A DNA stretch of 62,340 nucleotides, the filler included, from Nemertoderma westbladi (taxonomy: Eukaryota; Animalia; Xenacoelomorpha), in assembly GCA_032718475.1 (NCBI GenBank). It is 4 parts of 4 records of this genome, joined end to end, with 100 filler letters (N's around TTAATTAATTAA, not from the genome) between each part and the next. Parts side by side here need not be neighbours in the genome. Positions count along the whole stretch, not along the records: positions 19,095 to 43,484 come from JAUCBJ010004182.1; 3 more parts are not named here. One strand, written 5' to 3'. How positions within the stretch are numbered: position 1 is the first letter of the stretch; each line of letters starts with the position of its first letter. The position numbers and the translations under genes were made by a program. The notes below the pieces were generated by a model, which did no database searches, was not told the DNA's origin, and saw only the letters and a list, made by a program, of their open reading frames with translations. Shown here piece by piece: positions 4,652 through 56,553 of the stretch.

Positions 4652-4924
4652 CCCCCCCTCCCCCTGTCTCATATTTCTTATCTTATTGTTAAATCGAAAA
4701 TTGTCGGGCATCCCAATTTTTTGACACCCTATCCGAATTTGCGACCCTCTCATATTTTATAATCATATATATTTCCTGTAATCTCACCCCTTGGTTATTA
4801 AATCTCGCCCTATGATTATTCAATCTCATCTGTGGTTTTTCAATATCGCTTATGTTTATTCTATCTCGCCCTATGTTTCCATATCGCCCAAGTAACTTTT
4901 GTTGTTAATTGAAATAAATTAACA

Positions 4925-11200: not shown

Positions 11201-14200
11201 CATGGGCGTAACTGCAAAGTGAAATATAACAGCAGAAAGTCTGGTATTCTTCACATGGGCGTAACTGTAAAGTGAAATATAACGGCAGAAAGTCTGGGTA
11301 TTTTTCACATGGGGGTAACTGCAAAGTGAAATATAACAGCAGAAAGTCTGGTATTCTTCACATGGGCGTAACTGCAAAGTGAAATATAACGGCAGAAAGT
11401 CTGGGTATTCTTCACATGGGGGTAACTGCAAAGTGAAATATAAAGCAGAAAGTCTGGTATTCTTCACATGGGCGTAACTGCAAAGTGAAATATAACGGCA
11501 GAAAGTCTGGTATTCTTCACATGGGCGTAACTGCAAAGTGAAATATAACGACAGAAAGTCTGATATTCTTCACATGGGCGTAACTGCAAAGTGAAATATA
11601 ACGGCAGAAAGTCTGGTATTCTTCACATGGGCGTAACTGCAAAGTGAAATATAACGGCAGAAAGTCTGGTATTCTTCACATGGGCGTAACTGCAAAGTGA
11701 AATATAACAGCAGAAAGTCTGGTATTCTTCACATGGGCGTAACTGCAAAGTGAAATATAACGGCAGAAAGTCTGGGTATTCTTCACATGGGGGTAACTGC
11801 AAAGTGAAATATAACAGCAGAAAGTCTGGTATTCTTCACATGGGCGTAACTGCAAAGTGAAATATAACGGCAGAAAGTCTGGGTATTCTTCACATGGGGG
11901 TAACTGCAAAGTGAAATATAACAGCAGAAAGTCTGGTATTCTTCACATGGGCGTAACTGCAAAGTGAAATATAACGGCAGAAAGTCTGGTATTCTTCACA
12001 TGGGCGTAACTGCAAAGTGAAATATAACGACAGAAAGTCTGGTATTCTTCACATGGGGGTAACTGCAAAGTGAAATATAACAGCAGAAAGTCTGGTATTC
12101 TTCACATGGGCGTAACTGCAAAGTGAAATATAACGGCAGAAAGTCTGGGTATTCTTCACATGGGGGTAACTGCAAAGTGAAATATAACAGCAGAAAGTCT
12201 GGTATTCTTCACATGGGCGTAACTGCAAAGTGAAATATAACGACAGAAAGTCTGGTATTCTTCACATGGGCGTAACTGCAAAGTGAAATATAACGGCAGA
12301 AAGTCTGGTATTCTTCACATGGGCGTAACTGCAAAGTGAAATATAACGGCAGAAAGTCTGGTATTCTTCACATGGGCGTAACTGCAAAGTGAAATATAAC
12401 GGCAGAAAGTCTGGTATTCTTCACATGGGCGTAACTGCAAAGTGAAATATAACGGCAGAAAGTCTGGTATTTTTCACATGGGCGTAACTGCAAAGTGAAA
12501 TATAACGGCAGAAATCCTGGTACAAACTCCGCTACTAATGATAACTTTCCTACTAAACTTCTAAGAACCATTGCTGAACCACTTGCTCACCACCTTACTT
12601 ACCTAATTAACCTATCTATTACTATTGGAAACTTTCCTGATTGCCTAAAATATGCTAAAATAATACCAAACTATAAGGGGGGTGATCCACTCGATCCAAA
12701 TAACTATCGCCCAATTTCTCTCTTACCGGTATTTAGCAAAATTTATGAACAAATTATATATTCCCAACTTCAAAACTACCTCGAACGCTTTTCAATTTTA
12801 ACATCACGACAGTTCGGCTTCAGGAAAAAAATATCAACATCATATGCCATATTAACGGTTACTGAAAAAATTCGATCTATACTGGACTCTAAAAACTCAG
12901 CCTGTGCTATCTATATCGACTTGAAAAAAGCATTCGATACATTAGATCACAACATTTTATTAAAAAAATTAGATACATATGGAATCCGCGGAACACCAAA
13001 AAATTTATTTCAAAGCTTTTTATCAAACCGGTCACAATCTGTTTCTCTAAATAACTGTCTTTCACCGCCTTTGCATCTGAGTTGTGGCACTCCCCAAGGT
13101 TCGGTATTATCACCACTACTCTTCTTACTATATATCAATGATCTACCTAACGCTTCTAACCTTCTGACCACCCTCTTCGCTGATGACACAACCCTTCTTC
13201 ATAGCCACAAAGATCTTGAACTACTAATTACTACTGCTAACTACGAGCTAGACAAGATCTCTGATTGGCTAGTCGACAACCGCTTATCACTAAACCTAAC
13301 TAAAACAGAATATTTCATATCCAGTAATCAACGGCACGACTGCTTACCGAAAATAAAAATAAAAAACAATAATATTAAACAGGTGGAGTGTGCGAAATTT
13401 CTAGGTGTATTGATGGACCGAAAACTAAATTGGAAATCACATATTAATTATATCCTCGCTAAAATTTGCAAAACATCAGGCATTTTTTATAAATTAAGGC
13501 ACATATTTCCCCTTGAAATTCTTCGCACACTCTACTTCTGTCTCGTACATCCGTATATTACATACTCTATATTAGCATGGGGTTCCACACATACAACGAC
13601 AATACGCCCGCTTAGAATCAAAATTAATAAAATAATTCGCTGCATAACTTTTAGCCACTACCAAGCTTCCTCTATCCCTATTTACAGATCATTAAATATT
13701 CTCCCCCTTGAATCTCTATTTAAATTTCACTTAGGCCAACTAGTTTTTGATGCTTTATCAAATACAAATCACCCTTTATCGACTCTATTTTCTAAATCAT
13801 CTGAATTTCATCATTACAACACCCGATCGTCCGCCTCAGGTAAACTAGTAATTCCTCTAACTCATCTACATGTCGCTCACCAATCTATCTCCGTGTTAGG
13901 ACCTTTATTTTGGAACAGTCTACCAAACAATATTATAAATATAAAATCCGCAACAATATTTAAACAAACATTAAAAAAACACCTGAAAGACAATATGACT
14001 TAAATAATATTAATATATAAATAAATAATTATAGTAATAATATAATAAAATAATACAATCATATTTAAAAAATAAAAATTAATCTATTAAGGGGCCGCAT
14101 GGTAGGATACTACACTTTTGGATTTATTATTTTAAATATTTAAAATTGACGAAATTAATTAAATACAATACAAATAATACTATAAATTCTGACAACCCGT

Positions 14201-17200
14201 GAGTACATATATTTTTACTACCCCCCCCCCCCCCCCCCCCCCAATTGGTTTAGCTGGAGGCCTTGACTAGCTCGGCTATTGCCACCAGCCATATAACCAG
14301 CCTGCACTTTTTAATATACATCTATACATATATATATCAATATTTCTATATTATAAGTGCGGTAAATAAATTTATATATATCTATCATGAAATAATATAA
14401 TAATTGAAATTGAAAAAAAAATTGAAATTGGTATTTTTCACATGGGCGTAACTGCAAAGTGAAATATAACGGCAGAAAGTCTGGTATTCTTCACATGGGC
14501 GTAACTGCAAAGTGAAATATAACGGCAGAAAGTCTGGTTTTCTTCACATGGGCGTAACTGCAAAGTGAAATATAACGACAGAAAGTCTGGTATTCTTCAC
14601 ATGGGGGTAACTGCAAAGTGAAATATAACGACAGAAAGTCTGGTATTCTTCACATGGGCGTAACTGCAAAGTGAAATATAACGGCAGAAAGTCTGGTATT
14701 CTTCACATGGGCGTAACTGCAAAGTGAAATATAACGGCAGAAAGTCTGGTATTCTTCACATGGGCGTAACTGCAAAGTGAAATATAACGACAGAAAGTCT
14801 GGTATTCTTCACATGGGCGTAACTGCAAAGTGAAATATAACGACAGAAAGTCAGGTATTCTTCACATGGGCGTAACTGCAAAGTGAAATATAACGACAGA
14901 AAGTCTGGTATTCTTCACATTAGCGTAACTGCAAAGTGAAATATAACGACAGAAAGTCTGGTATTCTTCACATGGGCGTAACTGCAAAGTGAAATATAAC
15001 GGCAGAAAGTCTGGTATTCTTCACATGGGCGTAACTGCAAAGTGAAATATAACGACAGAAAGTCTGGTATTCTTCACATGGGCGTAACTGCAAAGTGAAA
15101 TATAACGACAGAAAGTCAGGTATTCTTCACATGGGCGTAACTGCAAAGTGAAATATAACGACAGAAAGTCTGGTATTCTTCACATTAGCGTAACTGCAAA
15201 GTGAAATATAACGACAGAAAGTCTGGTATTCTTCACATGGGCGTAACTGCAAAGTGAAATATAACGGCAGAAAGTCTGGTATTCTTCACATGGGCGTAAC
15301 TGCAAAGTGAAATATAACGGCAGAAAGTCTGGTATTCTTCACATGGGCGTAACTGCAAAGTGAAATATAACGGCAGAAAGTCTGGTATTCTTCACATGGG
15401 CGTAACTGCAAAGTGAAATATAACGACAGAAAGTCTGGTATTCTTCACATGGGCGTAACTGCAAAGTGAAATATAACGACAGAAAGTCTGGTATTCTTCA
15501 CATGGGCGTAACTGCAAAGTGAAATATAACGACAGAAAGTCTGGTATTCTTCACATGGGCGTAACTGCAAAGTGAAATATAACGACAGAAAGTCTGGTAT
15601 TCTTCACATGGGCGTAACTGCAAAGTGAAATATAACGACAGAAAGTCTGGTATTCTTCACATGGGCGTAACTGCAAAGTGAAATATAACGGCAGAAAGTC
15701 TGGTATTCTTCACATGGGCGTAACTGCAAAGTGAAATATAACGGCAGAAAGTCTGGTATTCTTTACATGGGCGTAACTGCAAAGTGAAATATAACGGCAG
15801 AAAGTCTGGTATTCTTCACATGGGCGTAACTGCAAAGTGAAATATAACGGCAGAAAGTCTGGTATTCTTTACATGGGGGTAACTGCAAAGTGAAATATAA
15901 CCGCAGAAAGTCTGGTATTCTTTACATGGGCGTAACTGCAAAGTGAAATATAACGACAGAAAGTCTGGTATTCTTTACATGGGCGTAACTGCAAAGTGAA
16001 ATATAACGACAGAAAGTCTGGTATTCTTTACATGGGCGTAACTGCAAAGTGAAATATAACGGCAGAAAGTCTGGTATTCTTCACATGGGCGTAACTACAA
16101 AGTGAAATATAACGGCAGAAAGTCTGGTATTCTTTCATGGGCGTAACTGCAAAGTGAAATATAACGGCAGAAAGTCTGGTATTCTTTACATGGGGGTAAC
16201 TGCAAAGTGAAATATAACCGCAGAAAGTCTGGTATTCTTTACATGGGGGTAACTGCAAAGTGAAATATAACGGCAGAAAGTCTGGTATTCTTCACATGGG
16301 CGTAACTGCAAAGTGAAATATAACGACAGAAAGTCTGGTATTCTTCACATGGGCGTAACTGCAAAGTGAAATATAACGGCAGAAAGTCTGGTATTCTTCA
16401 CATGGGCGTAACTGCAAAGTGAAATATAACGGCAGAAAGTCTGGTATTCTTCACATGGGCGTAACTGCAAAGTGAAATATAACGGCAGAAAGTCTGGTAT
16501 TCTTCACATGGGCGTAACTGCAAAGTGAAATATAACGACAGAAAGTCTGGTATTCTTCACATGGGCGTAACTGCAAAGTGAAATATAACGACAGAAAGTC
16601 TGGTATTCTTCACATGGGCGTAACTGCAAAGTGAAATATAACGGCAGAAAGTCTGGTATTCTTCACATGGGCGTAACTGCAAAGTGAAATATAACGACAG
16701 AAAGTCTGGTATTCTTCACATGGGCGTAACTGCAAAGTGAAATATAACGACAGAAAGTCTGGTATTCTTTACATGGGCGTAACTGCAAAGTGAAATATAA
16801 CGGCAGAAAGTCTGGTATTCTTCACATGGGCGTAACTGCAAAGTGAAATATAACGACAGAAAGTCTGGTATTCTTTACATGGGCGTAACTGCAAAGTGAA
16901 ATATAACGGCAGAAAGTCTGGTATTCTTTACATGGGCGTAACTGCAAAGTGAAATATAACGGCAGAAAGTCTGGTATTCTTTACATGGGGGTAACTGCAA
17001 AGTGAAATATAACCGCAGAAAGTCTGGTATTCTTTACATGGGGGTAACTGCAAAGTGAAATATAACCGCAGAAAGTCTGGTATTCTTTACATGGGGGTAA
17101 CTGCAAAGTGATATATAACCGCAGAAAGTCTGGTATTCTTTACATGGGGGTAACTGCAAAGTGAAATATAACCGCAGAAAGTCTGGTATTCTTTACATGG

Positions 17201-17731
17201 GCGTAACTGCAAAGTGAAATATAACGGCAGAAAGTCTGGTATTCTTTACATGGGGGTAACTGCAAAGTGAAATATAACCGCAGAAAGTCTGGTATTCTTT
17301 ACATGGGCGTAACTGCAAAGTGAAATATAACGGCAGAAAGTCTGGTATTCTTTACATGGGCGTAACTGCAAAGTGAAATATAACGGCATAAAGTCTGGTA
17401 TTCTTTACATGGGGGTAACTGCAAAGTGAAATATAACGGCAGAAAGTCTGGTATTCTTTACATGGGGGTAACTGCAAAGTGAAATATAACGGCAGAAAGT
17501 CTGGTATTCTTTACATGGGCGTAACTGCAAAGTGAAATATAACGGCAGAAAGTCTGGTATTCTTTACATGGGGGTAACTGCAAAGTGAAATATAACGGCA
17601 GAAAGTCTGGTATTCTTTACATGGGCGTAACTGCAAAGTGAAATATAACGGCAGATAGTCTGGTATTCTTTACATGGGGGTAACTGCAAAGTGAAATATA
17701 ACGGCAGAAAGTCTGGTATTCTTTACATGGG
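8265..17731. repeat. 53-bp satellite DNA array, interrupted by a LINE at 12515-14428
   Basis: Unit GGTATTCTTCACATGGGCGTAACTGCAAAGTGAAATATAACGGCAGAAAGTCT, period 53 (GTAACTG at 8341 and 8394); roughly 140 highly similar head-to-tail copies. Confidence 0.97.
12515..14428 (+). mobile_element. 5'-truncated CR1/L2-group LINE inserted in the satellite; RT and C-terminus are open (ORF ends 14003)
   Basis: NNYRPISLL, QFGFR, YIDLKKAFD, GTPQGSVLSPLLFLLYINDL, LFADD; 3' UTR ends in an ATTGAA-type short-repeat tail at ~14403-14428; no endonuclease domain. Confidence 0.93.
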
Positions 17732-18217: not shown

Positions 18218-18890
18218 TGTTCGCGCTTTCAGACTTTTGGCAGTTTAACCCACCAAATTAAGATGTCTTCTAGATATTAAATCAGTTTTTAGTCTATGAC
18301 AAGTATTTGATTCACTACACTAGTCGAAACCAATCCGTGCGCGACCATTCACCCGCTGGAGATTCCCGGGAGATTGGGTTCGACGGTTTAATTTTATTGC
18401 TATGTAAGCCTAATGTATTATTCGACTGACAGTATTATATAATCTCTGACAATATTATTCACCTTCGGGAATATTAACAGTTCCTTTAGGACGTGGCGCT
18501 TTATCTATATAAACAGAGTTATGACTTAAACTACTCACAACGATATGGCTTAATTATAATTCACATATATGGCGCATTCTTTAGGAATTGCTTCTTTAAC
18601 AGACTCACTCATACACAATGCTGCACAATACTGCACACTAATCTGCCAATCTTCACTGATTTTAGTCACATATAAAAGGAACACAGACTGACTCATGTAG
18701 GGTCTATCAAATAACATTAGATTCACTTCAAACCACTTTAACATAAGTCACAATCGTTTATCTGTAACCCTTCTCTCTTACCTTCGGTATATCAAGAATA
18801 TTGGGTTTCGGGGTTATTTATCGTTATTCCAAATATAATTATTCATCAACCATATTATGAAGAACTGACGGTAAATAGCAGTATAAAACA
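18218..18890. repeat. Dispersed ~670-bp repeat, copy 1 (inverted relative to 52383-53053); LTR-like termini
   Basis: Near-identical to the reverse complement of 52383-53053 (ORFs 18493-18675 and 52596-52778 are almost the same); ends TGTT...AACA; no TSD or PBS seen. Confidence 0.8.
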
Positions 18891-18994: not shown

Positions 18995-19094
18995 NNNNNN
19001 NNNNNNNNNNNNNNNNNNNNNNNNNNNNNNNNNNNNNNTTAATTAATTAANNNNNNNNNNNNNNNNNNNNNNNNNNNNNNNNNNNNNNNNNNNN
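18995..19094. other. Artificial gap/linker
   Basis: 44 N + TTAATTAATTAA (stops in all six frames) + 44 N. Confidence 0.95.
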
Positions 19095-20360: not shown

Positions 20361-21579
20361 GGGCAGTTTTTGTTCGATCGGCAATAGGCCTAACTATACA
20401 AAATGTAGTATTATTGCCTAGCAACCAATTCATAGCTACTGTATGATTTTCACTTTGAGACATTTCACCCTCTAGCAGCAGACTCGGATCTTCAGACTAC
20501 TCTGTTACTCCGCAAAAAGATATAGCCTATATTGTAATAGATACCGACTGGGGGGTCAAAATTAAGTAATAATATATCTAAAAAGTATCAAACACCTTGC
20601 CTCATGGCTCGCCCCTCAGAACTCTTAAGCAATATAGCTTCATAGTTTTTAATGAAAACTGGTAAACGAGATTTGTTACTTACGCATACCTCGCAGACTT
20701 AAGTAATTAATTATACAGTAGGTTACATCGTTTTGGGAGTAGGACCATTGGAAACAGCGCCCTCGAAAACCTCAGTACAAATAAAATTAATAAAGATTAA
20801 CAGGGTATAGCTTGTTATAATAAAACATAAATTATAATATGGTAGAACAATTCGGGTTGTAAATAAAAACAAATTCAATAAATTTAAGATAAACTGTATA
20901 TAACTTATGTATTAAATGAGGGCCTTATTTAATTATGTGCGGTTAGACGCGCGTGGACTGCTTCGCAATACAATGCGAAAGAATGCAAACTAATGCCATA
21001 CCAGATGTTTATTCTAATTTCTTGGTGAATTGTCGAGCTGTGGGTTTGAATAATTTAAGCTCTATGGCAGGCCCCATTCACGCAGGCCCCATTCACGCAT
21101 TGATGATTGGGTTAGTCATGCTATGGCTAATAAGAGCCCGAACAGCCACAGATTATTGAGGGGTTGAGCTAGGACCAAACTGGGGCCACTTTATTTTGGT
21201 GAAAGGGTATATTTATGTTTTGGGCCTCGATTGTGTCTTTATATTTAATTCTATCATTTTATTGTACGGCAAAAATAATACAAATGTATTGTATATTGTA
21301 ATGTACAGTGCCTATTGTATTGTATATTTCATTTGCTGTAGTACAATTTATTCATCTCGCGTCCCCCTATCTGATTGATTTGTATCAAATTAAATTGCCT
21401 TTGGCAACATTATTTGATACAAATCGATTGATTAAACAATTAATTAATTGTTTAATCGACCAATTAATTAATTGATTAATTAATTAATGACCTACTTAAC
21501 ACCCAAGGTGCGAAGTGGGTCTAAACTGTCGCCAAAGAGGGGTAACCATTACTACTAACCACCACCAATATCACCGAGG

Positions 21580-22360
21580 ATGACAGACCGGCGGCGGAGC
21601 AACCCGACCTCCTCCTCCGATCGTTATCTACATCGGCTCGGAATGACTCCATCTATGTTGCGCTGTGGGAGGCCATCGAGTCAGGGTTCCCTGCGATGTC
21701 CCGCCAACAGGCGGGAGTCCAACCCTACTGGTCCATTCAGGACGAATTATCAATCGATCGGGACCTGGTCCTCTACGGACACCGCATCATCATCCTGCGG
21801 GCAAACTGGCGGGATACGTTGGCGCACCTCCACTCCACACACCAGGGGGTTGAAAAGACCCTATGTCGGGCCCGCCAGACAGTCTACTGGCCGGGCATCA
21901 CTAACGATGTCTGGACAACCGTCTCCTCCTGCGAACCCTGCCTCACCCAATGGCCCAGCCTTGCTCAGGAACCCCTGCTGAGGGACCGTGAGGCCACACT
22001 GCCATTCCAGGAACTATCTGGAGATTTATTTTACCTCAATGGAAATAATTATCTCGCAGTCGCAGACAGATACTCCGGGTGGCCCGAGATCTATGGATAC
22101 ACCAGCCGCCCCACCCACCGCTGAACATGTACGGGACATATTCACACGGTTTGGTGTCCCCCAATGGTTTGGGTTGGATGGCGGCCCTCAATTCACCGAC
22201 GAGGCGTTTAAACATTTCTGACATACTTGGGGGGTCGAGCCCATCACCTCCTCCCCAGAATACCCGCAAAGCAATGGCCATGCGGATTCCACCATCAAGG
22301 CTCTCAAGGCGTTGCTCACAAAGACCGGGAGAAAACTGACTTTACCAGCGTTCCTGGAGT
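21580..22360 (+). mobile_element. Decayed Ty3/gypsy pol, 5' part (integrase Zn-binding domain and core)
   Basis: YWSIQDELS, LHSTHQGVEKTLCRARQTVYWPGITND..CEPC, DLFYLNGNNYLAVADRYSGW, FTRFGVP..DGGPQF, SSPEYPQSNGHAD; frameshift and stop present; cut after PAFLE. Confidence 0.9.
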
Positions 22361-23064
22361 TCCTTTCTTTAGTTTTACCTTGTCTATCGTCGCCCCTCCT
22401 CTGGCCTCCTTTAGCAGTTTCTGGGTCGCGTTGTAGGCCCGTCGAAGTCGATCAGAAACCCCGACGTCCTCGTCGCCGACCTCTTTTCCGTCTCTCCGGG
22501 TCCGGCGTCGTACCGTCGGCCCCACCGTCGCCGTTTCGGTGGGCCGCTCGTCGCCCTCGGCCTGTGGCTGGCCGGCGACATCGGTACCGACATCTCCTCC
22601 GTCTCTCCGGGTCCGGCGTCGTACCGTCGGCCCCACCGTCGCCGTTTCGGTGGGCCGCTCGTCGCCCTCGGCCTGTGGCTGGCCGGCGACATCAGTACGT
22701 CGACCCACGTGCCGTGTCGACTCGTCTCCTTCTCCTTCTAACTCGTTCTCTCGATCCTCCAACTCGACTCCCCCTCCTCTCGACTTGACTTCTGACTCCA
22801 GACGGCCCCCCTCATCCTGAACTTCCGGGTCACCCATTACCGATGGGTCCGGCGTTGTGTGCCTGTACCGTCTGGTTGCGGCCTCGCGGATCGTTAGCTC
22901 TTCGTCCGGGGTCCGCGTCGGTGTCGTCTCGCCTGACCGACTCATCTCCATTAACTCTAGATTGGTGGCTGGTAATCGCTGGGTTTAGTTGACTAGGGGA
23001 ACAGCTCGGATTTAATTACTGTGACGGGATCCAGGAAGGATCCCGGTTTATCCGGTTGTTTAGT
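22361..23064 (-). repeat. 704-bp direct repeat, copy B (matches 32251-32954)
   Basis: Offset 9890 bp; about 9 substitutions counted by eye; contains the leader, the gag start and an internal 111-bp tandem duplication. Confidence 0.93.
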
Positions 23065-23599
23065 ATCTATCTCTTCTCCACTCTCACCATAACTCTCTCA
23101 TACCCTCGGACATCCTCGTCCCTCACTCAGCCTCTTATTCTCCCCCCCCCACACTAGAATTGCGTCCGCACTCTCTCCGCACTTCGCACTATTACTCCGT
23201 CTCTCTTTGGCTACCTCATCCCTTCTGACGAGTCTCCCCCTCCTCTTGTGCCGTCGCACTCAAGAAGTGTGAAATCGTCTGGTGTCTCGTCCATAGTGCC
23301 ATAGTCAGTTATCCCCCCAGTCCCAGTAGCTAATTGAGAAAGGTTGTATGACTATAGTACTTACTCTGAACGTATATTTATTGCTAAACTACTGATCACT
23401 ACGTACGTACATATAATTGCACTTATTTAATTATTTTGCATCAGCTTAATTTGTACTTAATAGTTCATACGTCCCACGCGGCGCCTTCCAGGCGTACCAT
23501 GTCCAAGTCTCAGTTTCTCTCCCCCGGCCCTGGGAACCTATCTGTTCCTCTGGAGATAGTTCCCTCTGGCGTCCTCTTCCCTGGGTCGTTTCTTGGTTA

Positions 23600-26077
23600 C
23601 TACCGCTCCTCTGGGATCCGCTTTCGGACTTTCGCCGCCACCTCCCTACTGATCCCGGTTGTTGGCTCCTTGGGCGCTGGTGTTATTAGTGCCCGATATA
23701 GCTTCGCCGGTGGCCCCTCAGAGTGGCCCTGTTGTCTCCCTCTGGTGGCGTCCCATAGGATCATCTTCATTGCTCGCGGCACGTGCTCCGCCAAGAAATC
23801 CCTAAACTCCCCTCGGTTCTCTGGCGTCCACCTGTCCAAGTATCTTTGTGTATTCATCACTCCGGCATACGACGCCGCCGTTGCTACCTCTTGATAGGTA
23901 ATCGGTAGCCTCCGCTTTATGATTTCCATGTGAGCCTCCTGATTGATAAGGAAGAAACCCCACTTGAACTCCTGGGCCTTCATGCGCTGGCGCGTCATGG
24001 CCCCGACGTCGGCCCACTCCTCGAATCTTCTGAACTTCTCTTCGTCGTCCATCCAGTCACACTGGCGTCCGTAGTGTCCCCGAAAGTTGCACTTCGGACA
24101 TCGGTTATGCAACCGTGGACACGCCCCCATCCTGTGGCTCGGCTCTCGGCAGTAGAGACAAAAGGTTCCCTTTTGGAACCGGTACAAGCAGCTCCTTTCC
24201 TGGTGGGTCTGTCTCCCACAGTAGTTGCAACCGAGTACCAATGTCTCCCGCCCCACGTCGTCTTTCGTCCCAAGCGATCTCCGCGGTCTGTGGAGTCGCT
24301 GGTAGGCGAACTTCTCCACGTTGGTATCCCTGTCTACGTCGATCTCTCCGCCCCTCTCGGGCATCGTCTCCCCGAATACTATCCGTGGTGCCGTCCCCGG
24401 TTGCTCGCCCAACCTGATAGTGCTCCCCGCGAAATCCATCGCCGGCTCCTCGTGCACCCAGGTCCGCTTGCCGGATCTGTTCCAGAAGGCCCTCGCCCCA
24501 CTGGCCGTCACCACCCTCCCGCCAACCCAGTCCGTGTCCGAGTGGCCAATCCTCTCGATGGACGGCACCCCTCCGAACTCATCGTCGTCCTCCTCCTCCT
24601 CTGGCAGTGGCTCCAACCCCGGTATCCCGATGGATCCACTATGTCCCTTCCCGCCTTGGCTCTCACCCATAGCTCTCCATCCCTCTAGCTCCCTTAACTT
24701 CCTTGGCGGTTGGTCGCCTTCGGCGCCCGCTGGTATGGGCATCGCTTGCAACCCCAACGTCGACTGTTTCGGCGATCCCACCGTCCATCCCAGTTCTCGC
24801 CCTAGAGACTCCCCCGAACTCCCTGACGAAGTCCAATGAAGTTCGTCTAAGCCTGCCTGTTCCTCGAAGCCGTAACTCTGCGTCCTGGCCTCCTCTTCCC
24901 TCTCCTCTGCTTCTATCCTCTCCCGTCTAGCGACTTCTTCCAGTCGCTTTGCTTCTCGTCTATCCGTCTCTAGCTGCTCCCATCTCTGATACGGCGTATC
25001 TGTCTCCCCGTCTACCAGATGTCGGCTGTTGTAGTACACCGACTCGCCCTTCAGCCCCGGGTGGTCTACCAGACCGTCGAAGGCCATTTTAAAGGTTCTC
25101 CTGTAGCTTAGGGGTGATCCCGATAACAGAAATGCCGCTGGTTCCCTCTCGATAACCACGGTCATAAATAAGTTAAGCAAACTTATCATCATCCAATCTT
25201 CCTGCAGGATATATCGCTTCTGATATACCTTTATCGCTCCTCTGCGGAATTGATATACCTCTTGCTTACCCGGTCTCGCTCCCCACTTTAGCGAGTTCGC
25301 TAGTTCTGCTCCGTATTCTTCCCTGAACTTCCCCCAGTCCATCGGTTTGTGGCATACGAGCCCCAATAGTTGGCCCATTGCCACCGCCCCGCATTTGCCT
25401 GTGTTTCCGACTACCCCCAACCCATCCGGTGCCGCCATAGCCATGAAGACCTTCTGCATATCCAGGAGGTTGGTGGCGTCCGGACCGATGATTCTCTCCG
25501 CGTCCTCGCGAATCGCCGATCCTACTTTCGTCGTCGACTTCTCTCTTACCAAGACTTGTACCGCTTTCGGCAACCGGTTTAGTTTCGGCCCGTCCTTCTT
25601 CCCATACGTTCCTAGATCGAATAAGAAGATGTCCCCATTTGGCGCGGCCAAATGTAGGAGTATGGTCCTGGCCGACCCCGCTGATCCTCGTCTCGAACCC
25701 TCCTCGTCTTCCACGGTTCCCTCGTCGTCTAGGATCATATATCCTCCCCTGTTGACAGACTCTATGAATCTCTTCCAATCCTTCCTCGGTGATTCCCTCG
25801 GGTACTTCGGGATCCCGAACTTCGCCTCGTCCCCTTTCACTACGTAGTGGAAGTGTTGGAAGATCGTGTTGTCCAGCGACGGCGTCCCGTAGGTCCTGAC
25901 CAGCCGCTGTTCGTGCATCTCCCGGAAGTGATCCTGCAGCGCTCGTGCCGCGTGACCCTTTTCCAACCTCTCGTAGTATCCTCTCGTCTTCTCTTCCGGA
26001 TGCCTCTCGGTGAAATCCGCCAGTATCTCCTTTCCTCCTGACTCCGCCTTTCTCTTTCTGATCAATTTGCTCGCCAT
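23600..26077 (-). CDS. DEDDy-type (RNase D/WRN/EXD-like) 3'-5' exonuclease domain + acidic linker + three CCHC zinc knuckles, ~825 aa
   Basis: ExoI-like YMILDDEG; ILLHLAAPNGDIFLFDL; LPKAVQVLV; ExoII-like KVGSAIREDA; LLDMQ; ExoIII-like YQKRYILQED; knuckles CNYCGRQTHQERSC, CLYCREPSHRMGAC, CPKCNFRGHYGRQC; first ATG at 26077 in context GGAATGG. Confidence 0.75.
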   Translation of the reverse strand: MASKLIRKRKAESGGKEILADFTERHPEEKTRGYYERLEKGHAARALQDHFREMHEQRLVRTYGTPSLDNTIFQHFHYVVKGDEAKFGIPKYPRESPRKDWKRFIESVNRGGYMILDDEGTVEDEEGSRRGSAGSARTILLHLAAPNGDIFLFDLGTYGKKDGPKLNRLPKAVQVLVREKSTTKVGSAIREDAERIIGPDATNLLDMQKVFMAMAAPDGLGVVGNTGKCGAVAMGQLLGLVCHKPMDWGKFREEYGAELANSLKWGARPGKQEVYQFRRGAIKVYQKRYILQEDWMMISLLNLFMTVVIEREPAAFLLSGSPLSYRRTFKMAFDGLVDHPGLKGESVYYNSRHLVDGETDTPYQRWEQLETDRREAKRLEEVARRERIEAEEREEEARTQSYGFEEQAGLDELHWTSSGSSGESLGRELGWTVGSPKQSTLGLQAMPIPAGAEGDQPPRKLRELEGWRAMGESQGGKGHSGSIGIPGLEPLPEEEEDDDEFGGVPSIERIGHSDTDWVGGRVVTASGARAFWNRSGKRTWVHEEPAMDFAGSTIRLGEQPGTAPRIVFGETMPERGGEIDVDRDTNVEKFAYQRLHRPRRSLGTKDDVGRETLVLGCNYCGRQTHQERSCLYRFQKGTFCLYCREPSHRMGACPRLHNRCPKCNFRGHYGRQCDWMDDEEKFRRFEEWADVGAMTRQRMKAQEFKWGFFLINQEAHMEIIKRRLPITYQEVATAASYAGVMNTQRYLDRWTPENRGEFRDFLAEHVPRAMKMILWDATRGRQQGHSEGPPAKLYRALITPAPKEPTTGISREVAAKVRKRIPEER

Positions 26078-26549
26078 TCCGAACACTCACTCGCTCACCT
26101 GTAAGGTGGTGCCTTACCAAGGCGCAATAAAGATGAGTGATGTATCTAAGATGTTCTGTACGGTCCGATAATGGCCTATTCCCTACTCAACTGCGCCCTT
26201 TTAGCCTAAATTATTACTAATTAATTCTAAAGCTAGTAAATACACCCTAATTTCAATTTCTGTCAGTTACTTTTATTATGTTCCAGAATAACTTTCCTAG
26301 TGTTGTCATAATTTGTAACTTTCAGCCCTATTCTATTTATCTTAGTTTAGTTTTAATTCTACTGTCCTACTACTTACTATTGCCTATGGATTATTCTATT
26401 CTCTAATCCACATTCTGGCCTACTCTGTGGGCCTGTGCAGTACAGCAGTATGCGTCGCGTGGCCACACGATTTACCCAGCTGTACTCATATGCCCCCCTC
26501 TCGCTACTAACTGCTAACTAATATCTATATCTTATCCCTTCTACCTCTT

Positions 26550-27140
26550 ACTCTCTCTCTAACTAACGGTACTACGTACCCTCTAACTCTTACTCTCTCT
26601 CTAACTAATGGTACTACGTACCCTCTAACTCTTACCTGACGGTACTACGTACCCTCTAACTCTCTAACTAACGGTACTATGTACCCTCTAACTCTTCTCT
26701 AACTAACGGTACTACGTACCCTCTAACTCTTCTCTAACTAACGGTACTACGTACCCTCTAACTCTCTAACTAACGGTACTACGTACCCTCTAACTCTCTA
26801 ACTAACGGTACTACGTACCCCCTAACTCTCTAACTAACGGTACTACGTACCCTCTAACTCTCTACTAACGGTACTACGTACCCTCTAACTCTCTAACTAA
26901 CGGTACTACGTACCCTCTAACTCTCTAACTAACAGTACTACGTACCCTCTAACTCTCTAACTAACGGTACTACGTACCCTCTAACTCTCTAACTAATGGT
27001 ACTACGTACCCTCTAGCTCTCTAACTAACGGTACTACGTACCCTCTAACTCTCTAACTAACGGTACTACGTACCCTCTGACTCTCTAACTAACGGTACTA
27101 CATACCTCCTAACTAACTAACTAACTCTAGGTACTACGTA
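26550..27140. repeat. 32-bp minisatellite with an internal hairpin
   Basis: Unit GGTACTACGTACCCTCTAACTCTCTAACTAAC (GTAC at 26903, 26935, 26967); about 17 copies. Confidence 0.93.
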
Positions 27141-27299
27141 CCTTCTTACTGACTAACTTCTGCCTACTAACTGCGTACCTACTATGTACTATTATTTTAT
27201 TTTTATTTTTAATTTTTTGTGTGGGAAGGGCGTCTCACCCTCAATCCCACCCCCCTCAGTCCAAATTTTGGACGACTAAACTCTTCTGTAACTCCACTA

Positions 27300-28885
27300 A
27301 GGTGCCCCTTCTAACAGACAGGTAACACCTCTGCCCGCACCTTTTACGGATCTAACTCTTCCATCCCAGTCCAACCTATTGGACAACTCAGCGACCCAAG
27401 GGGTGATTCCTCCAGCAGGCAACTCTCCCACTGCCACCCCACAGGTCCTCTAATTCTTCGCTCCGCTCTCCTTGTCAATTCTGGTGGCCTTTTCTCCTGT
27501 CTTTGGAAATGCTGTCTGTTATTTATGTTTCTGATCTCGTGGTCGTCCCTTGGCGGCAAAGTGCCACCCTTCAACGTGTCGCCCGGCGGTATAATGCCGC
27601 CCCTGTTCTTCTCCTTAATCTTAGATGCCACCTCTGCTGGCCTCCCCCTTAATATGTGTGCTGGCATTAAAGGCCTCGACGACCCCCGTTCGTCCTTCGG
27701 TATACACGATCTCTGCCCATGAAATGCCCCTTCGCACTCTGTCAGTCCCGCGTGCGTCTGCAGCATGCCTCCTACTTTCCCGGCTCCTTTGTCCATCACA
27801 CGCCCACCCACGGGCTTCTCAGCCCCTGGTCTGGTCGTCTCAAGTCTTCTCCCTTTCCATTTAGTCCTCCTGCTCGGCCTCCCCCTTGTCGGCATGCCTC
27901 CCAACCGGACCGGCATCTCTTCCGGACACTCCTCCAGCCTGTCCCCCGGACATTTTGCCGTCCGCTCCTCTCCATCTCCATACCGACGCTTGCTGGGACT
28001 CTTGTTCCAACCCATCATCTCTAGATCTTCTGCATCCATGCCATTCTCCTCCGCCCACTCTCTTGGTGTTGCTTCCACTTCTAGCTGTCTACCACTATTG
28101 CCCATCTCTGGCCTCTCCTCTATCTCGTCGACAGTTCCTGGCACCATGCATCCTGAACTCTCAGACACATGGAATGGTATATTACTCTTAATTGGGCCTG
28201 TCAGTGTCCACCCGAATGGTGTTAATATCGCCACCGGGTCACACTGCTTGTCTTCGCCGAAGACCGTTTGCATTCTTTCGTGGGCCGTTGGGCAGTCCAT
28301 TCCTACTATGATGGATACCTTCCTAACGTCCACATCTGGGATTGAGAAGTCAATGTCGTCCAGGAATTTATATTGCTCGACCTCGATGTTGGTTGGCCGC
28401 CTGGCATTGATATTAATTGACTCTATCACTTGGATGGGGTCGATGGTTGCCCCATAGTCGCATCCCGGTGCCACCGCTGCAATTGCGCACCGTCCTGTTC
28501 TCATCTCCAGGATCTCATCTTTGCTAGAGATGGTTGTTACCGCCATTCTGCTTGGCCTCGTTCTCAATCCTATCTCTTCGGCCACCCATTCCTCGACTAA
28601 TGTGAAGGCAGCTCCACTATCGACCAGCATTAGTGTTGTTACTGATCGATTGCCTTCTCCAATCACTCGCACGGGTACTACCCCAAGTAACACCATTCCC
28701 CTCTTCTTCGCCCCTACTGTGCTCGTTGCCATCGTTTGGCCTCTCCTTTGACCGAACTTTACCGGCTTCTCCTTGCATTCCCTTGCTCTGTGTCCACTCA
28801 TCACACATCGCGAGCAGATTTTATTGCTCAACGCATAATCTATTTGATCTTGCCTAGGTAGCGCCTGCCAGTACCTGCAGTTCAT
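27300..28885 (-). pseudogene. BEL/Pao gag knuckle + aspartic protease + degenerate integrase C-terminus; RT/RNase H missing
   Basis: CSRCVMSGHRAREC; VLLGVVPVRV; LMLVDSGAAFTLV; VSIIVGMD; AILTPFGWTLTGP; later LTECE...RPLMPAHILRGRP and, out of frame, PLGR...DGRVRSVK; no RT motifs in between. Confidence 0.8.
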
Positions 28886-31800
28886 GGTTTGATGAAGCGC
28901 ATTTGCGTGTAGCTGGCATTTGCTCTTTGGGTTGTAGCCCTCCTTATACAGTGCATCGCGTCTAGCGTCTTAAGCACGATTAGCGCCTTTTCGACTTTGT
29001 TAGCGAACGTCTTAATGCTAACGGGATTATCCTGTAAGCCACCCGATGTTATGCCTCTCAGTGTCTGTCTGATGATCTTGGCCGGGTGCCCGTATTCCCT
29101 GTCCAGTGCCCGCCATGCTGTCGTGAAGCCGCCCTCTATTCCTTGATATTGCCTCACGATATCGTATGCTGGGCCTCCCATGTATACGTGCAGATATTTT
29201 AGGCACTCCGCCTGCGTCAAGTTTTTTGTTAGTATTTCGTTACTATACATACGCCGAAACTGTAGATATTCTTCCGGCCTACTCCCATCGAATTTGAATG
29301 GTTCCACGGGTGGTAACTCGATCCTCGTTTTCAACGCATCGATCAACGTGGCCATCCCCATCGCCTGCGCTTCCAATGGGTTCGATGGATGCTGTATAGT
29401 TTCTCCTGTCTGGTGTGGTTCGTCCATCCTATTTCTTGATTTTCTTTGACTTGGGTATGTCATCGGGGGTAGCGGCCCCCTCCATATTTCTGTGTCACAC
29501 GACCTATTTTCATCCAAGGGTCTCGTTGTTCTTGCTCCTATCGGGGTATATTGTTGATATTGTGATGGGGAATGTCACCCTGTCCCCCCCCCCCCACCGG
29601 TATGTTTGGTACTGGGGTTGATGTTGGGGCCCATACACCTATCCGCAATAATTCCCCCCTCCCCTGGGTATATGTTATGTCCCTGCATGCTGTAGTCATA
29701 CTGCTGTACTGGTACCGGTATAGGCCTATCAGCTTCTGGCCTACTCGCCGGTATGTATTCCGCGACTTCCGGGTTTAATCCCGTTGTCCGCGCTATCCTA
29801 TCGCCTACATTGCCTCTCTCAGTATGGCCTATGGTATGTGCAGTAAGGCCTACAGTATGTCCTACAGTCTGCATGTGTCGCTCGGGATCGAAGTTTATTC
29901 TTCTCGAATAATCCTCCCCGCGGCTACCGTATTCTCGATCGGTAGGTGTATTCCGTCGGAAAGTTTCTCTTCGATCCCCCTCTCTACTGTTCTCGTCTTC
30001 GTACCGGTACATCGCGTACCCCTCCATCGGCGCGTAATGCACCTCACCAGGTCGCATCTCTCCGGGGCGACGGCAATCTCCCGGAGTCCGACACCACTGA
30101 CTCTCTGTTCTCATCTCGACTACCGACGGCTCGCTATCCGTCCTCGCTCTTCTATCGTTCGCGGCGATACCTCTAATACTGTCTTCTCTTCTTCTCCTTT
30201 CAGTGGAGTGTTCCCGCTCGTGAGATCTCTCGTCGACCTCCCGGTTAAACCCCACTGTTCTTCTTCCCTCTTCTGATCGGGCTCGACGCTTCGTCCGCCC
30301 TCTCACGACGTCAACCTGACTCTCTCTGCTCGGTCGTACGCCGTTGGGGATACTCGCAATCCCCCTATTACTCTCCGTCGCCGGGTGTTGCGGTTTACCT
30401 ATTTCGGCCCGCGCATTATCCGCTGATGGCTGTGGAGCACTCTCTGCCCCCCCCTTTCGCCGCTAACTCGCTGTTGTGGGGCCCCTGTAGCCCCCCCCCC
30501 CCCCCACTCGCCACATCTAACTTCACTACCTCTCACCACGCTACCGTATCCCTCTCTCGTCGACACATCAACCCTAACGCGGTCGGGTCTATTCACCCCC
30601 GCCTCTCCCTCTGCTATTGCGTGGCCTACCAGGCCCTCTACTCCCTGCCTACCAACTACATGGCCTACCAGGCCCTCGCTGGGTCTACCCAACCCAGCCA
30701 CTCCCTGCCTACCAACTACATGGCCTACCAGGCCCTCTCTGGGTTGGCTCAACCCCGCATCCTCCGGCCTACCAACTACGTGGCCTACCAGGCCCTCTCT
30801 GGGTCTACCCAACCCAGCCACTCCCTCCCTACCAACTACGTGGCCTACCAGGCCCCCATCTGCCTGGCCATACATGCCCGACGTGTTCACGTTAATAGCA
30901 CCCATATTGGAAACGGAATTAATTTGTTCATTTGAAACAAAATCATTTCAATTATTTTGTAAATTCGGGCTTGGATCATTACTTAAATTATTTGAGTTAT
31001 TATTATTTTCTAAATTTAAATTATTATTCGGATTATTTTGCACGTTTAAATTGAAATTATTATTTGTATTTAAATTTAAATTACTGCTACTAGGTAAAGT
31101 ATTATTTGCTGCAATAAAGGGATTAGGGTTATCCAATACGGTACTATTAATATTAATGACGTCTACTATGGCATTATTATTACCCCCCCCCCCCCCCCCC
31201 GCCCATACGGTCACACCAGTCTTGGGTCTGTCGTGCGGTCCCTGTAAGTGGGGTATTAATAAATGTATCCACAGCCCCTGGCTCCTCGAAAATACTCGAG
31301 CTAGCCCCACTCTCAGATGCCCCTATTCGCACCAGTTCCCGTTCGCGCATGTGTATAGCTTTGTACCCTGTAAGCTCACCTTGGCGTTTCTCTAATTCTT
31401 TTCGCTCACACTCCTTCCTTGCCATTCTCTCCTTACACTCCCGTGCGTCGCGCTCGGCCAATTCCAACTCTCTTCTAGCCCCCTCCCTTCGTCTCGCCTC
31501 ACGCTCTCTGCGTTCATTTTCCTCTCTCGCCTCGCATTCTTTGCACTCGTTTTCCTCTCTCGCCTCGCGTTCTTTGCACTCGTTTTCCTCTCTCGCCTCA
31601 CGTTCCCTGCGTTCGCTTTCCTCTCTCGCTACACGTTCCTTACGTTCCGCCTCACGCTCTTTGCGCTCATTTTTCTCTCTCGCTACACGTTCCCTACGTT
31701 CCGCCTCACGCTCTTCTTGTTCCTTCCTCCCTACTTCCTCACACTCCCTAAGGCTTCTCGCGGCCCTTTCGGCCCTCTCTCCGGTTTCCTTAATCAACGC

Positions 31801-32835
31801 CATTTCCCTCTCTAGCAGCACTCTCCCCTCCTCTAACCGTCTACCTACTTCCCTTTGACCTTGCTCTATCAAATCGAGATGGTACGTGGCATTTATCTCT
31901 CTCACTCGTCTTCCTTTCACGGAGGATGTAGCAGACTTATCGGTTACAACGGATTCCCTCTGCCTTCCCGACCTACTGACTTTCCCCCGCCTCCCGGAAC
32001 TTCCTCCGACCGACGAGGCCGAATCCTCGGGGTTAACCTCGGATTCGCCCTCCTCAGGTCTCTCCCAACCCACTAATTTTAGTCCCCGGGCATCGACTAA
32101 GTATGGCCCTACGTACACTACGCTAGGTTCCATACCCCTACACCGCCATAAGTCATACAGTTCCTCGGCAACCCCTCTCGCTCTCTCCTTGGCCAGTTCT
32201 CTTTGCCCGAAGCGCATTAGATAATTAAAGTGTTTATTCGACTCACCTAGTCCTTTCTTTAGTTTTACCTTGTCTATCGTCGCCCCTCCTCTGGCCTCCT
32301 TTAGCAGTTTCTGGGTCGCGTTGTAGGCCCATCGAAGTCGATCAGAAACCCCGACGTCCTCGTCGCCGACCTCTCTTCCGTCTCTCCGGGTCCGGCGTCG
32401 TACCGTCGGCCCCACCGTCGCCGTTTCGGTGGGCCGCTCGTCGCCCTCGGCCTGTGGCTGGCCGGCGACATCGGTACTGACATCTCCTCCGTCTCTCCGG
32501 GTCCGGCGTCGTACCGTCGGCCCCACCGTCGCCGTTTCGGTGGGCCGCTCGTCGCCCTCGGCCTGTGGCTGGCCGGCGACATCAGTACGTCGACCCACGT
32601 GCCGTGTCGACTCGTCTCCTTCTCCTTCTAACTCGTTCTCTCGATCCTCCAACTCGACTCCCCCTCCTCTCGACTCGACTTCTGACTCCAGACGGCCCCC
32701 CTCATCCTGAACTTCCGGGTCACCCATTACCGATGGGTCTGGCGTTGTGGGCCTGTACCGTCTGGTTGCGGCCTCGCGGATTGTTAGCTCTTCGTCAGGG
32801 GTCCGCGTCGGTGTCGTCTCGCCTGACCGACTCAT
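28882..32835 (-). pseudogene. Disrupted, very long BEL/Pao gag (coiled-coil and low-complexity N-terminus + DUF1759-like capsid region)
   Basis: 29517-28882 reads RIELPPVEPFKFDG..YLQF..LKYL..AWRALDREYG; upstream pieces (32835-31180 E/R coiled coil, N-rich part, 20-aa GLVGHVVGR repeats) are separated by shifts at poly-G runs and by single in-frame stops at ~30948 and ~29575. Confidence 0.75.
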
Positions 32836-32954
32836 CTCCGTTAACTCTAGATTGGTGGCTGGTAATCGCTGGGTTTAGTTGACTAGGGGAACAGCTCGGA
32901 TTTAATTACTGTGACGGGATCCAGGAAGGATCCCGGTTTATCCGGTTGTTTAGT
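32251..32954 (-). repeat. 704-bp direct repeat, copy A
   Basis: Matches 22361-23064. Confidence 0.93.
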
Positions 32955-33453
32955 TCACGCGTCCACGCCGTGTGTGAAAGGTAAAAAGAGTTCGTGTCGT
33001 TCGTCGTATATAATAATCGGCTGTACGGGTATATAGATATAGGTATAGATATAGATAATGTTGTCGTACACGGAAGGCGGGATACGGTAATTAAAGTCCC
33101 GGTCCTTCCCTAGCTAAACTAACTAACCTAACTAGCACCAATATGATACTGAGATAACTGAACGAAATGATTACTGCCAACTGGCTATATTGCACGGGTT
33201 GGCCTTGTTACTCTACCTAATCGATGCCTTTCCCCCCTCTGATTGGTTGATACCCTTGTTGGCGCCCTTTGGAGTGTTCCCGTTCACTCCACCTGTTCTC
33301 TCTGGGTTAGGGGTTTGGCCCCTGACCCTCATTGTGTTTCTCCTTCCCATTTTGTTGGGGTGACACGAGTTGGTGATTACCCAATCTCGTGGCCCCCAAT
33401 ATTGCTTATCGGCTTAACTTTATGGGGTGTTAGCGGGATTGAATAAGCTAACA
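32947..33453 (-). promoter_or_regulatory. Putative 5' LTR (~507 bp) of the BEL/Pao-derived element
   Basis: On the minus strand it starts TGTTAG at the gypsy junction and ends CTAAACA; it contains CCAATCAG, a TATA-like AATATA and an Inr-like TCAGTT; no second LTR copy in the window. Confidence 0.55.
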
Positions 33454-33790
33454 CCAACACACAGCCGTGCGTTCCAGATGGAACACCAGCAGGCTCGCAC
33501 GGAGCTCGACTGGGCAGTGTCCGCGCTCCTCGAGTCGCACGGAGCTCGACTGGGCAGTGTCCGCGCTCCTCGAGTCGCAGACGGAGGGTTATAACACCCA
33601 CGCAAAACCTCTCACACCTCTAGCTGTGTGCGACCCGGTGCGGGTCCAAAACCTATCCACGAAAAGGTGGGACCGCACCGGGACGATTGTGGAATCGGGC
33701 CTCAACCGGAAGTACACCCTACGGACTCCGTCTGGCTGATGTCTAATTCGCAACCGTCGTCACCTACTCCGGGATACCTCCATAGACACC
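33454..33790 (+). mobile_element. Decayed Ty3/gypsy integrase, 3' part (continuation of 21580-22360)
   Basis: PTHSRAF...YNTHAKPLTPLAVCDPVRVQNLSTKRWDRTGTIV...RKYTLRTPSG*CLIRNRRHL; includes a 40-bp tandem duplication near 33496-33575. Confidence 0.8.
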
Positions 33791-33819: not shown

Positions 33820-35018
33820 ACCACTTTATAGAAGTAAAAGTGTCTGAGTCTGTACTCCCATATTCCCATTGGCGATATCTCCTTTGCAGAAGTGAAGGCT
33901 GCTGCAAAGAGCATTAAGACCAATCGTGCCAGTGGAGTAGATGGTGTTCCCCCTGATGTCTTTAAAATACCTGAGTGTTTAAAGCTCATCTATCCCATCA
34001 TAGTAGACATGTACCGAACAACAAGAGTCCCACAAGAAATGAAAACAAATAAGTTGGTGCCAGTTCCCAAGAAGGGCAACCTAACACTCTATGGTTCTTT
34101 TCGGGGAATCTCATTGATCTCGATTGCTGCAAAGCTATACAATAGGATTCTATTAAATCGCATCAGGGATCCCATTGAGAGACTACTCCGTGGAAATCAG
34201 AATGGGTTCCGTAAAGGTCGTGGGACCATGGAGCCCATTTTGGCACTTAGAAGGATAATTGAAGAATTATCAAAAAAGAAAGACAGGCATCTGGCTGTTA
34301 TCTTTGTTGACTTCTTCAAGGCCTTTGATTCAGTCTCTCGGTCACGTATGTTCAGCATACTTTCATTATATGGGATTCCTGATGAAATTATAGCAGCAAT
34401 CAGATCAGTATACGATGGTTCGACAACATTTGTGTCTACTGTTGACGGTGACGCAGAACCATTTGAAGTGTTATGGGGCGTTCTCCAAGGAGACACACTT
34501 GCACCATTCTTGTTCATTATTGTGGTTGACTATGTTCTAAGCATGTCCTTAGATCATTATAATGATGATGGGGTGATGATAACTCCACCTACTGGCTCCA
34601 GAAGTCGAGGAAATCCTGCCAAGTACCTAACTGATCTAGACTTTGCTGATGACTTAGGAGTACTCTCAGAATCATTAGAGGGAGCCCAACGGCTCCTCAG
34701 CTCATTAGAACATGCTGCTTCTAGTTTTGGTCTTTTTATCCGCCTCCGCTTTGCAGGTCATTGCTTTCGCCTTGAGGACCAGCCAGTGCATAATCTTGTA
34801 CTTTGGCAGCCTCATGGAGTGAATAAGCATGGTGGACAGCCCATGACTTTCTTGAGACGCATCTTAAAGGACACTGGCCTTAAAGATGCGAATGATCTAG
34901 CAAATGTCATGGGTGATAGGGAGTTGTGGTGGTGTAATTTTGTTGACAAGCCGGCACAGCATTCTTAAAAATGCAGCTGCAATGCAGCATGCCGATCCTA
35001 GTAGTAGTAGTAGTAGTA
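33820..35018 (+). mobile_element. RTE-clade LINE, 5' truncated and internally deleted (ORF 33892-34968)
   Basis: RASGVDGVP, PVPKKG, FRGISL, QNGFRKGR, FVDFFKAFDSV, GVLQGDTLAPFLF, DFADD, then a jump to RLRFAGHC; (TAG)n tail at ~34999-35018. Confidence 0.88.
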
Positions 35019-43484: not shown

Positions 43485-43584
43485 NNNNNNNNNNNNNNNN
43501 NNNNNNNNNNNNNNNNNNNNNNNNNNNNTTAATTAATTAANNNNNNNNNNNNNNNNNNNNNNNNNNNNNNNNNNNNNNNNNNNN
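43485..43584. other. Artificial gap/linker
   Basis: 44 N + TTAATTAATTAA + 44 N. Confidence 0.95.
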
Positions 43585-44079: not shown

Positions 44080-44150
44080 AATAATTAACTTCATTTTTTA
44101 TATATCCACGTGGTGAAAGACCCTTCCTTGCCTTTATTAATCCTGTAATT

Positions 44151-56453: not shown

Positions 56454-56553
56454 NNNNNNNNNNNNNNNNNNNNNNNNNNNNNNNNNNNNNNNNNNNNTTA
56501 ATTAATTAANNNNNNNNNNNNNNNNNNNNNNNNNNNNNNNNNNNNNNNNNNNN
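56454..56553. other. Artificial gap/linker
   Basis: 44 N + TTAATTAATTAA + 44 N. Confidence 0.95.

Follow-up and report, generated by a model that had tools for sequence, protein, structure and literature searches.

The 62,340-nucleotide stretch of DNA analysed here (henceforth, the window) joins four parts of the Nemertoderma westbladi assembly GCA_032718475.1, and coordinates are positions along the whole of it. The part drawn from record JAUCBJ010004182.1 (19,095 to 43,484) holds a damaged copy of a retrotransposon that, judged by the sequence of its DUF1759 gag, Cys-His knuckles and DSG protease, is of the BEL/Pao long terminal repeat (LTR) type. Downstream of gag, the aspartyl protease and a short integrase-tail remnant, and on the same strand, this element carries a third gene, ORF3, an open reading frame (ORF) that runs without internal stop or frameshift from an ATG at 26077 to a stop at 23600. 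Across 200 Markov simulations of the element, no ORF exceeded 229 codons, compared with the 825 amino acids (aa) of the ORF3 protein, to which all residue numbers refer. An original prediction, made from the sequence alone, had proposed an uninterrupted frame of ~825 aa downstream of the pol remnant of a BEL-type element, with three exonuclease motifs and three CX2CX4HX4C knuckles, and all of these are present as described. The motifs are LDDEG at aa116 (nucleotide (nt) 25732), KVGSAIRED at aa184 (25528) and RYILQED at aa288 (25216). ORF3 and the candidate signals around it comprise the following features:

23600..26077, minus strand: ORF3, 825 aa, with a predicted DEDDy-type exonuclease, a long helix, a disordered acidic linker, three CCHC knuckles and a conserved helical extension
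25073..25864, minus strand: predicted exonuclease domain, aa ~72-335, matched by profile to EXD2, by register to E. coli RNase D and by VIA-align to Nibbler
25729 and 25723 (ExoI D117/E119), 25504 (ExoII D192), 25213 and 25201 (ExoIII Y289/E293), minus strand: predicted catalytic residues, from the hhalign register to E. coli RNase D
24848..24994, minus strand: long charged helix, aa 362-410, in the AlphaFold model, with a low-confidence linker extending from it to aa 610
24059..24229, minus strand: three CX2CX4HX4C zinc knuckles (sequence motif), aa 617-630 (24229-24188), 640-653 (24160-24119) and 660-673 (24100-24059)
23768..24058, minus strand: helical extension after the knuckles, F-x-x-x-A-x-x-G-x-x-T-x-x-R...WGF, conserved and confidently modelled
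23377..23382, minus strand: candidate poly(A) signal AATAAA, ~220 nt past the ORF3 stop, read from sequence
near 26100, minus strand: candidate splice acceptor, read from sequence

A search of ORF3 alone against Pfam returned no match, so the assignment of its fold rests on homologue profiles and a structure model; phmmer of ORF3 against the PDB likewise gave weak knuckle matches only, trypanosome RNase D giving the strongest of them (E 0.18). A profile built from a 36-row alignment of ORF3 homologues, termed A1, matched EXD2 (E 2.9e-15), Trypanosoma brucei RNase D (TbRND; 7.5e-6, mostly via the knuckles), Egalitarian (2e-4) and WRN (5e-3). The AlphaFold model computed on A1 is confident in the exonuclease (predicted local distance difference test score, pLDDT, mostly 77-94 over aa 101-310) and across aa 611-770, with disorder over aa 409-610; a model folded from the single sequence reached a pLDDT of 34 only. 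Structural comparison by VIA-align placed Nibbler closest (Z 13.9, root-mean-square deviation 3.4, 204 residues aligned), ahead of NrnC/diDNase (13), TbRND and WRN (both 12.9) and Rrp6 and RNase D (12.3), and all 42 of the 42 PDB matches listed by Foldseek, led by Egalitarian and EXD1, are exonucleases of the DEDDy fold or complexes with one. An Atlas search with the exonuclease domain returned DNA_pol_A_exo1 clusters (0.93; family annotated on 34% of members), BFVD yielded only generic viral exonucleases, and two of 45 homologues run against Pfam reached DNA_pol_A_exo1, just below cut-off. From the profiles and the model, the N-terminal domain is predicted to have a DnaQ-like alpha/beta fold of the DEDDy (RNase D/WRN-type) exonuclease class. 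The fold named in the original prediction is thereby upheld by homologue profile (EXD2) and model, although Pfam does not recover it from ORF3 itself.

The active site can be read in the hhalign register (E 2.6e-6), in which D28/E30, D85 and Y151/D155 of E. coli RNase D fall on ORF3 D117/E119, D192 and Y289/E293. The ExoI D-x-E and the ExoII D are present and aligned with RNase D and EXD2, and ExoIII reads YxxxE, with the tyrosine in place and E293 at the position of RNase D D155. The earlier description of ExoIII as atypical was right in that the motif is not YxxxD, but overstated its oddity, since among 35 long homologues the position is D in 17 and E in nine. Five deeply diverged homologues also have Glu there in an otherwise complete site. 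The ExoI and ExoII acids are kept as D in 22/35, E in 24/35 and D in 22/35, and the full D-E-D-D/E set in 18/35. ORF3 is thus predicted to be a 3′-to-5′ exonuclease, and we consider catalysis likely.

The C-terminal half supplied the top scores for a family of homologues that emerged from a phmmer search of 1.84 billion representatives, in which all but one of 83 matches (E <=0.001) were best in the knuckle region. The module of knuckles and helical extension is found in 81/83 homologues, and its Cys and His residues are mostly invariant across A1. The extension matched no named family, and a profile of the C-terminal module searched against the PDB gave weak knuckle matches only. Thirty-seven of the 41 homologues of at least 450 aa combine an exonuclease-like N-terminal domain with this module, always in the same order, a count that is partly circular given that the profile was built from 35 of the homologues counted; with a query-free profile, ORF3 scores 92 bits and its reversed sequence 1 bit. 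The 30 homologues checked are unnamed or labelled 'hypothetical' and sit on contigs that measure 2.5-30 kb, with 9-13 kb a common size, and no homologue locus was found in metagenome, viral or prokaryote genome contigs. Several have lost the catalytic acids while keeping both domains (P0040, P0061, P0077, P0080 and P0081, also P0082, P0016 and P0042), the first five of which form a supported clade in an exonuclease-domain tree that is quick, long-branched and poorly resolved overall, and that was built without the rotifer ORF3s discussed below. For P0005, the best Atlas match is TbRND (0.86, a lead only). Further variation includes two knuckle-helix modules in P0001 and long N-terminal extensions ahead of the exonuclease in P0024, P0063 and P0100.

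The carrier element and its insertion site are laid out as follows:

28885..32835, minus strand: broken gag, with a Pfam match to DUF1759 at 28957-29292 (E 1.5e-10 to 2.8e-11)
28502..28675, minus strand: aspartyl protease (DSG; E 1e-5), with the gag Cys-His knuckles before it
27366..28150, minus strand: ~0.8 kb replacing reverse transcriptase (RT), RNase H and integrase core, without a match and with contig depth ~10x below the flanks
27297..27365, minus strand: integrase C-terminal remnant, DGRVRSVK...CLLE, without a Pfam match, presumably a BEL/Pao-like tail
26544..27158, no strand assigned: 32-bp tandem array between the pol end and ORF3
21546..22360, plus strand: left part of a Gypsy-type integrase hit by the insertion, which resumes at ~33454-33740
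32955..33453, minus strand: 5′ terminal segment of ~500 bp that starts TG at 33453, a candidate 5′ LTR without a second copy in the window
32251..32954, minus strand: first copy of a 704-bp segment (leader and gag start), 98.7% identical to the second copy
22361..23064, minus strand: second copy of the 704-bp segment, from repeat comparison, and the element's present 3′ end

We take DUF1759 to be a BEL marker. In PMC5933816 it is given only as a gag domain, and the portions of the Sinbad description available to us report a DSG protease and a triple Cys-His array in that BEL/Pao element (PMC554778); two gag Cys-His knuckles were seen in the present copy and the third was not. The gag-protease region is broken near 31183, 30948, 30500, 29575 and 28960, three of these five sites being G homopolymers, and one gag G run varies in length among copies. 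No RT, RNase H or integrase-core match was found in the three minus-strand frames of 27200-30400. The broken, RT-less state of gag-pol in this copy is as the original prediction had it. RT was probably lost in this copy and not across its family, and the copy, with most of pol lost, is likely decaying passively.

The element forms an ~11.1-kb insertion within the Gypsy integrase. Contigs in two sequencing runs join 22359 directly to 33454, the empty site in a related Gypsy copy, from which the whole block from gag to ORF3 is missing. By the joining contig's own coordinates, ~87 nt of Gypsy target are missing in the window, which suggests that the 3′ end of the element was probably clipped by a deletion. 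The 704-bp direct repeat was rejected as an LTR: it contains the gag start, is not bounded by TG..CA, and has a summed depth about equal to that of the interior. The first 26 bases of the element (33428-33453, minus strand) can form a short hairpin, the first seven being the reverse complement of the last seven, and a G tract lies at 23142-23150, between the AATAAA and the second 704-bp copy. ORF3 would be expressed from its own or a spliced transcript. An env role was rejected, as no transmembrane segment was found in ORF3 (top 19-aa hydropathy 1.35).

ORF3 belongs to a family that is plainly many-copy and is not confined to this locus. A search of sequencing runs listed seven, six with the stretch or part of it, from four studies, and contigs on the 2.9-kb ORF region numbered 6,707 in run X1 and 3,859 in run X2. 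Summed depth in X1, which does not equal copy number, was 47-67k for ORF3, 13-95k for gag-protease and 446 for the adjacent Gypsy fragment. Over 27514-28014, the part in which pol is gone from this copy, contig depth is lower by a factor of about ten, so most copies hold other sequence there, likely a fuller pol. Among the best 15 of 358 joints, none skips 27514-28014 and none skips ORF3. A further run, X6, which is RNA by guess only, gave eight low-depth pieces without bearing on expression.

The variation among these copies points to selection on the protein. Among the best-supported 40 of 511 variant rows, 39 lie in ORF3 and the one outside was dropped; 28 of the 39 fall at third codon positions (P 1e-6), and 25 are synonymous, against an expectation of 0.33 for transitions. 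The 39 rows and one further ORF3 row were divided by frequency into variants shared among copies, of which 25/32 are synonymous (13/15 in the exonuclease; rough pN/pS 0.14 on these best-supported rows), and changes private to this copy, of which 0/8 are (Fisher P 8e-5 against shared). None of the eight private changes touches a catalytic or zinc-binding residue, and the E293 codon shows only synonymous variation among the listed variants. Indels among the listed rows comprise one of 3 nt inside ORF3 and three at its last eight codons, with indels of 1-2 nt in the flanks. Since shared variants are mostly synonymous and private ones all nonsynonymous, the gene appears to have been selected in replicating elements and to drift after insertion; on this reading of the sequences, purifying selection acted on the replicating elements and not on this copy. 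The suggestion that the cargo is maintained by selection therefore stands, whereas its retention in an RT-less element is not supported, given the depth drop at 27514-28014 and eight of eight private changes altering an amino acid. Domestication of this copy was rejected on the same 0/8 count. A contrast in lesion density between ORF3 and gag-pol, which had been proposed as a check, is not significant here (five breaks in ~4.7 kb of gag-protease versus none in 2.5 kb of ORF3, P=0.12), and we do not use it as proof of selection.

Extra DEDDy ORFs in rotifer retroelements, mentioned in the original prediction, are indeed documented: in the sections at hand, ORF3s of this type are described in the Juno and Vesta LTR retrotransposons and the Athena/Terminon elements of bdelloid rotifers (PMC5408684; PMC6431247). 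The rotifer and Nemertoderma proteins are alike as stand-alone RNase D-like DEDDy ORFs 3′ of pol, without a transmembrane segment and with an altered acidic motif. They differ, by description, in that the carrier here is BEL/Pao-type, the motif is D-E-D-(Y)-E rather than DEED, three CCHC knuckles and a helical module are joined to the exonuclease (the term 'CCHC' is absent from the main text of PMC5408684), and purifying selection is visible. A DEDDy domain also occurs inside the transposase of Dada DNA transposons, according to the parts of PMC3706591 consulted. The closest precedent for the domain order is TbRND (PDB 7C42/7C45), a DEDDy exonuclease followed by tandem CCHC fingers whose deletion lowers RNA binding and cleavage, as far as the available text of PMC7797062 goes. 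TbRND (Z 12.9), however, is a host guide-RNA trimmer with four fingers and a 28-aa linker, whereas ORF3 has three knuckles, a helix and disordered linker of ~280 aa, an extra C-terminal module and a mobile carrier; the two share 14-15% identity, and on these counts ORF3 falls outside trypanosomatid ZFD-containing RNase D (exonuclease plus four CCHC fingers, high identity, host gene). The exonuclease profile scores 59.6 bits against EXD2 and 10 bits against the exonuclease part of TbRND, so the exonuclease-CCHC design is likely convergent. EXD2, Nibbler (MUT-7), WRN-exo, EXD1 and Egalitarian (PF01612) share the fold and the ExoI-III register, EXD2 as the best sequence-profile match and Nibbler as the best structural one, but they are host genes without the CCHC triple, at 9-16% identity, and we claim no orthology. 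An RNase D-like extra domain may also occur in nematode BEL (Cer) elements, in which case exonuclease cargo would have a precedent among BEL elements; the texts searched gave no confirmation, and no knuckle fusion is known there. The literature, mainly open texts without their supplements, yielded no description of a DEDDy-CCHC ORF in BEL/Pao elements; as a design, the fusion flagged earlier as unrecognised has a characterised precedent in TbRND. What sets the present family apart is its EXD2-like profile, the triple knuckle with its conserved helical extension, and the BEL-type carrier. By analogy, ORF3 would work like TbRND in design and like the rotifer ORF3s in position.

We propose that a BEL/Pao-type retrotransposon present in many copies encodes ORF3 as its third gene. 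The three knuckles of the protein would hold on to single-stranded RNA and present the 3′ end to the exonuclease for trimming, and the protein would aid replication of the element, the most probable route being the trimming or sequestering of host small silencing RNAs. Taken as a whole, we regard this proposal as somewhat probable. Its parts differ in strength: the design of TbRND and the presence of Nibbler, Rrp6 and RNase D among the structural neighbours make RNA, rather than single-stranded DNA, the likely substrate. Host small RNAs are favoured as the target, if tentatively, on three grounds: the gene is accessory, small-RNA factors (Nibbler, EXD1) are among its structural neighbours, and the binding module persists in catalytically dead variants. 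The anti-silencing role of the original prediction is plausible, with processing of the element's RNA or cDNA a lesser possibility. Several observations weigh against the proposal. The ExoIII acid is Glu and not Asp, and at least one acid or aligned region is missing in 17/35 long homologues, so catalysis would be dispensable in some lineages. Scores of the structural neighbours lie within ~1 Z of one another, in effect a tie, and DNases are among them (diDNase, WRN, the apPol exonuclease), a spread that does not separate RNA from DNA. The variant rows are a selected subset, the best 40 of 511, and the private class is skewed to sites fixed elsewhere. Host genes, or cargo of other elements, may be present among the 37 two-domain homologues, and in the rotifer ORF3s, with their DEED motif, no departure from neutrality was detected and an auxiliary role was only argued, in the portions of PMC5408684 seen. 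Finally, inspection of this copy yielded neither paired TG..CA LTRs nor a target-site duplication nor a primer-binding site, a result that describes this copy and not the family.

The same fold and selection evidence would also suit a catalytically active enzyme whose substrates are replication intermediates of the element itself, such as the 3′ end of genomic RNA, primer RNA or cDNA ends, instead of silencing RNAs. The gag-like knuckles could direct the protein to the particle, no primer-binding site was recognised in this copy, and a role of this kind has been proposed for the rotifer ORF3s (PMC5408684) and the Dada DEDDy domains (PMC3706591), in the excerpts available. Sinbad, however, is described with gag-pol only in what was accessible of PMC554778, which argues that no core step of BEL/Pao replication needs an exonuclease, and the catalytically dead subclade better fits a binding or decoy role; we consider such a nuclease unlikely. 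That subclade, which keeps both domains without the acids, together with the Glu at ExoIII, top homologue scores that all come from the knuckle module and the lead of Egalitarian and EXD1 in the Foldseek list, would fit an RNA-binding pseudo-nuclease or scaffold like those two proteins, with the knuckle-helix as conserved core and cleavage weak or absent. Yet ORF3 retains D117, E119, D192, Y289 and an acid at 293, Glu recurs at ExoIII in the five diverged homologues with otherwise complete sites, and shared exonuclease variants are overwhelmingly synonymous, all of which makes a pseudo-nuclease distinctly improbable. That ORF3 was nested into a BEL remnant, as an independent mobile unit or a gene captured from the host, we think very improbable. 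After the end of pol lies a polypurine run (~27250), the tandem array separates pol from ORF3, this copy has no 3′ LTR, and no single contig spans pol and ORF3; but neither inverted repeats nor introns were found around ORF3, its depth is similar to that of gag-protease, the best 15 of 358 joints never skip it, the empty Gypsy site lacks the entire block, and many homologues lie on contigs the size of the element, a weak point.

The remainder of the window contains other mobile and repeated DNA. Its parts are separated at 18995-19094, 43485-43584 and 56454-56553 by N runs around a TTAATTAATTAA spacer. A single clear host gene was recognised, an intronless JmjC/Cupin_8 gene at 4913-5857 (plus strand; E 3e-71), which we take to be JMJD7-like. 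A 53-bp satellite of ~140 copies occupies 8276-17731, broken by a long interspersed nuclear element (LINE)-type RT ORF at 12453-14003, and a truncated LINE RT fragment at 33823-34968 (plus strand) belongs to a very abundant family, with contig depth 20-30x that of the BEL element. An intact 1085-aa ORF at 44085-47342 (plus strand) has RT-like and C-terminal GIY-YIG-like motifs and no Pfam match; it presumably represents a Penelope-like element. Near-identical inverted copies of a ~650-bp repeat lie at 18218-18886 and 52385-53053, 33 kb apart in the window, and an open frame of ~390 aa at 55281-56453 (plus strand), without a family match, runs into the gap. An Rfam scan returned nothing credible and no hammerhead.

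The role of retroelement DEDDy ORF3s has been a standing question since the rotifer elements were described, neither selection nor activity having been shown there. To this question the present family adds a clear sign of purifying selection at the level of the element, a module that may grip RNA and has a characterised parallel in TbRND, and natural active and dead variants, and ORF3 itself is an intact single-ORF protein suited to assay. In its broadest form, the proposal would cast a large, ancient and unnamed retroelement family of exonuclease-triple-knuckle proteins (at least 37 clusters at <50% identity, with active and dead branches) as a counter-defence that trims or sequesters PIWI-interacting or small interfering RNAs, built on the fold that host Nibbler and EXD1 use to make them, an extension that we regard as speculative and rather doubtful. 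Should small RNAs prove to be the target, ORF3 would be an enzymatic silencing suppressor carried by an animal retrotransposon.

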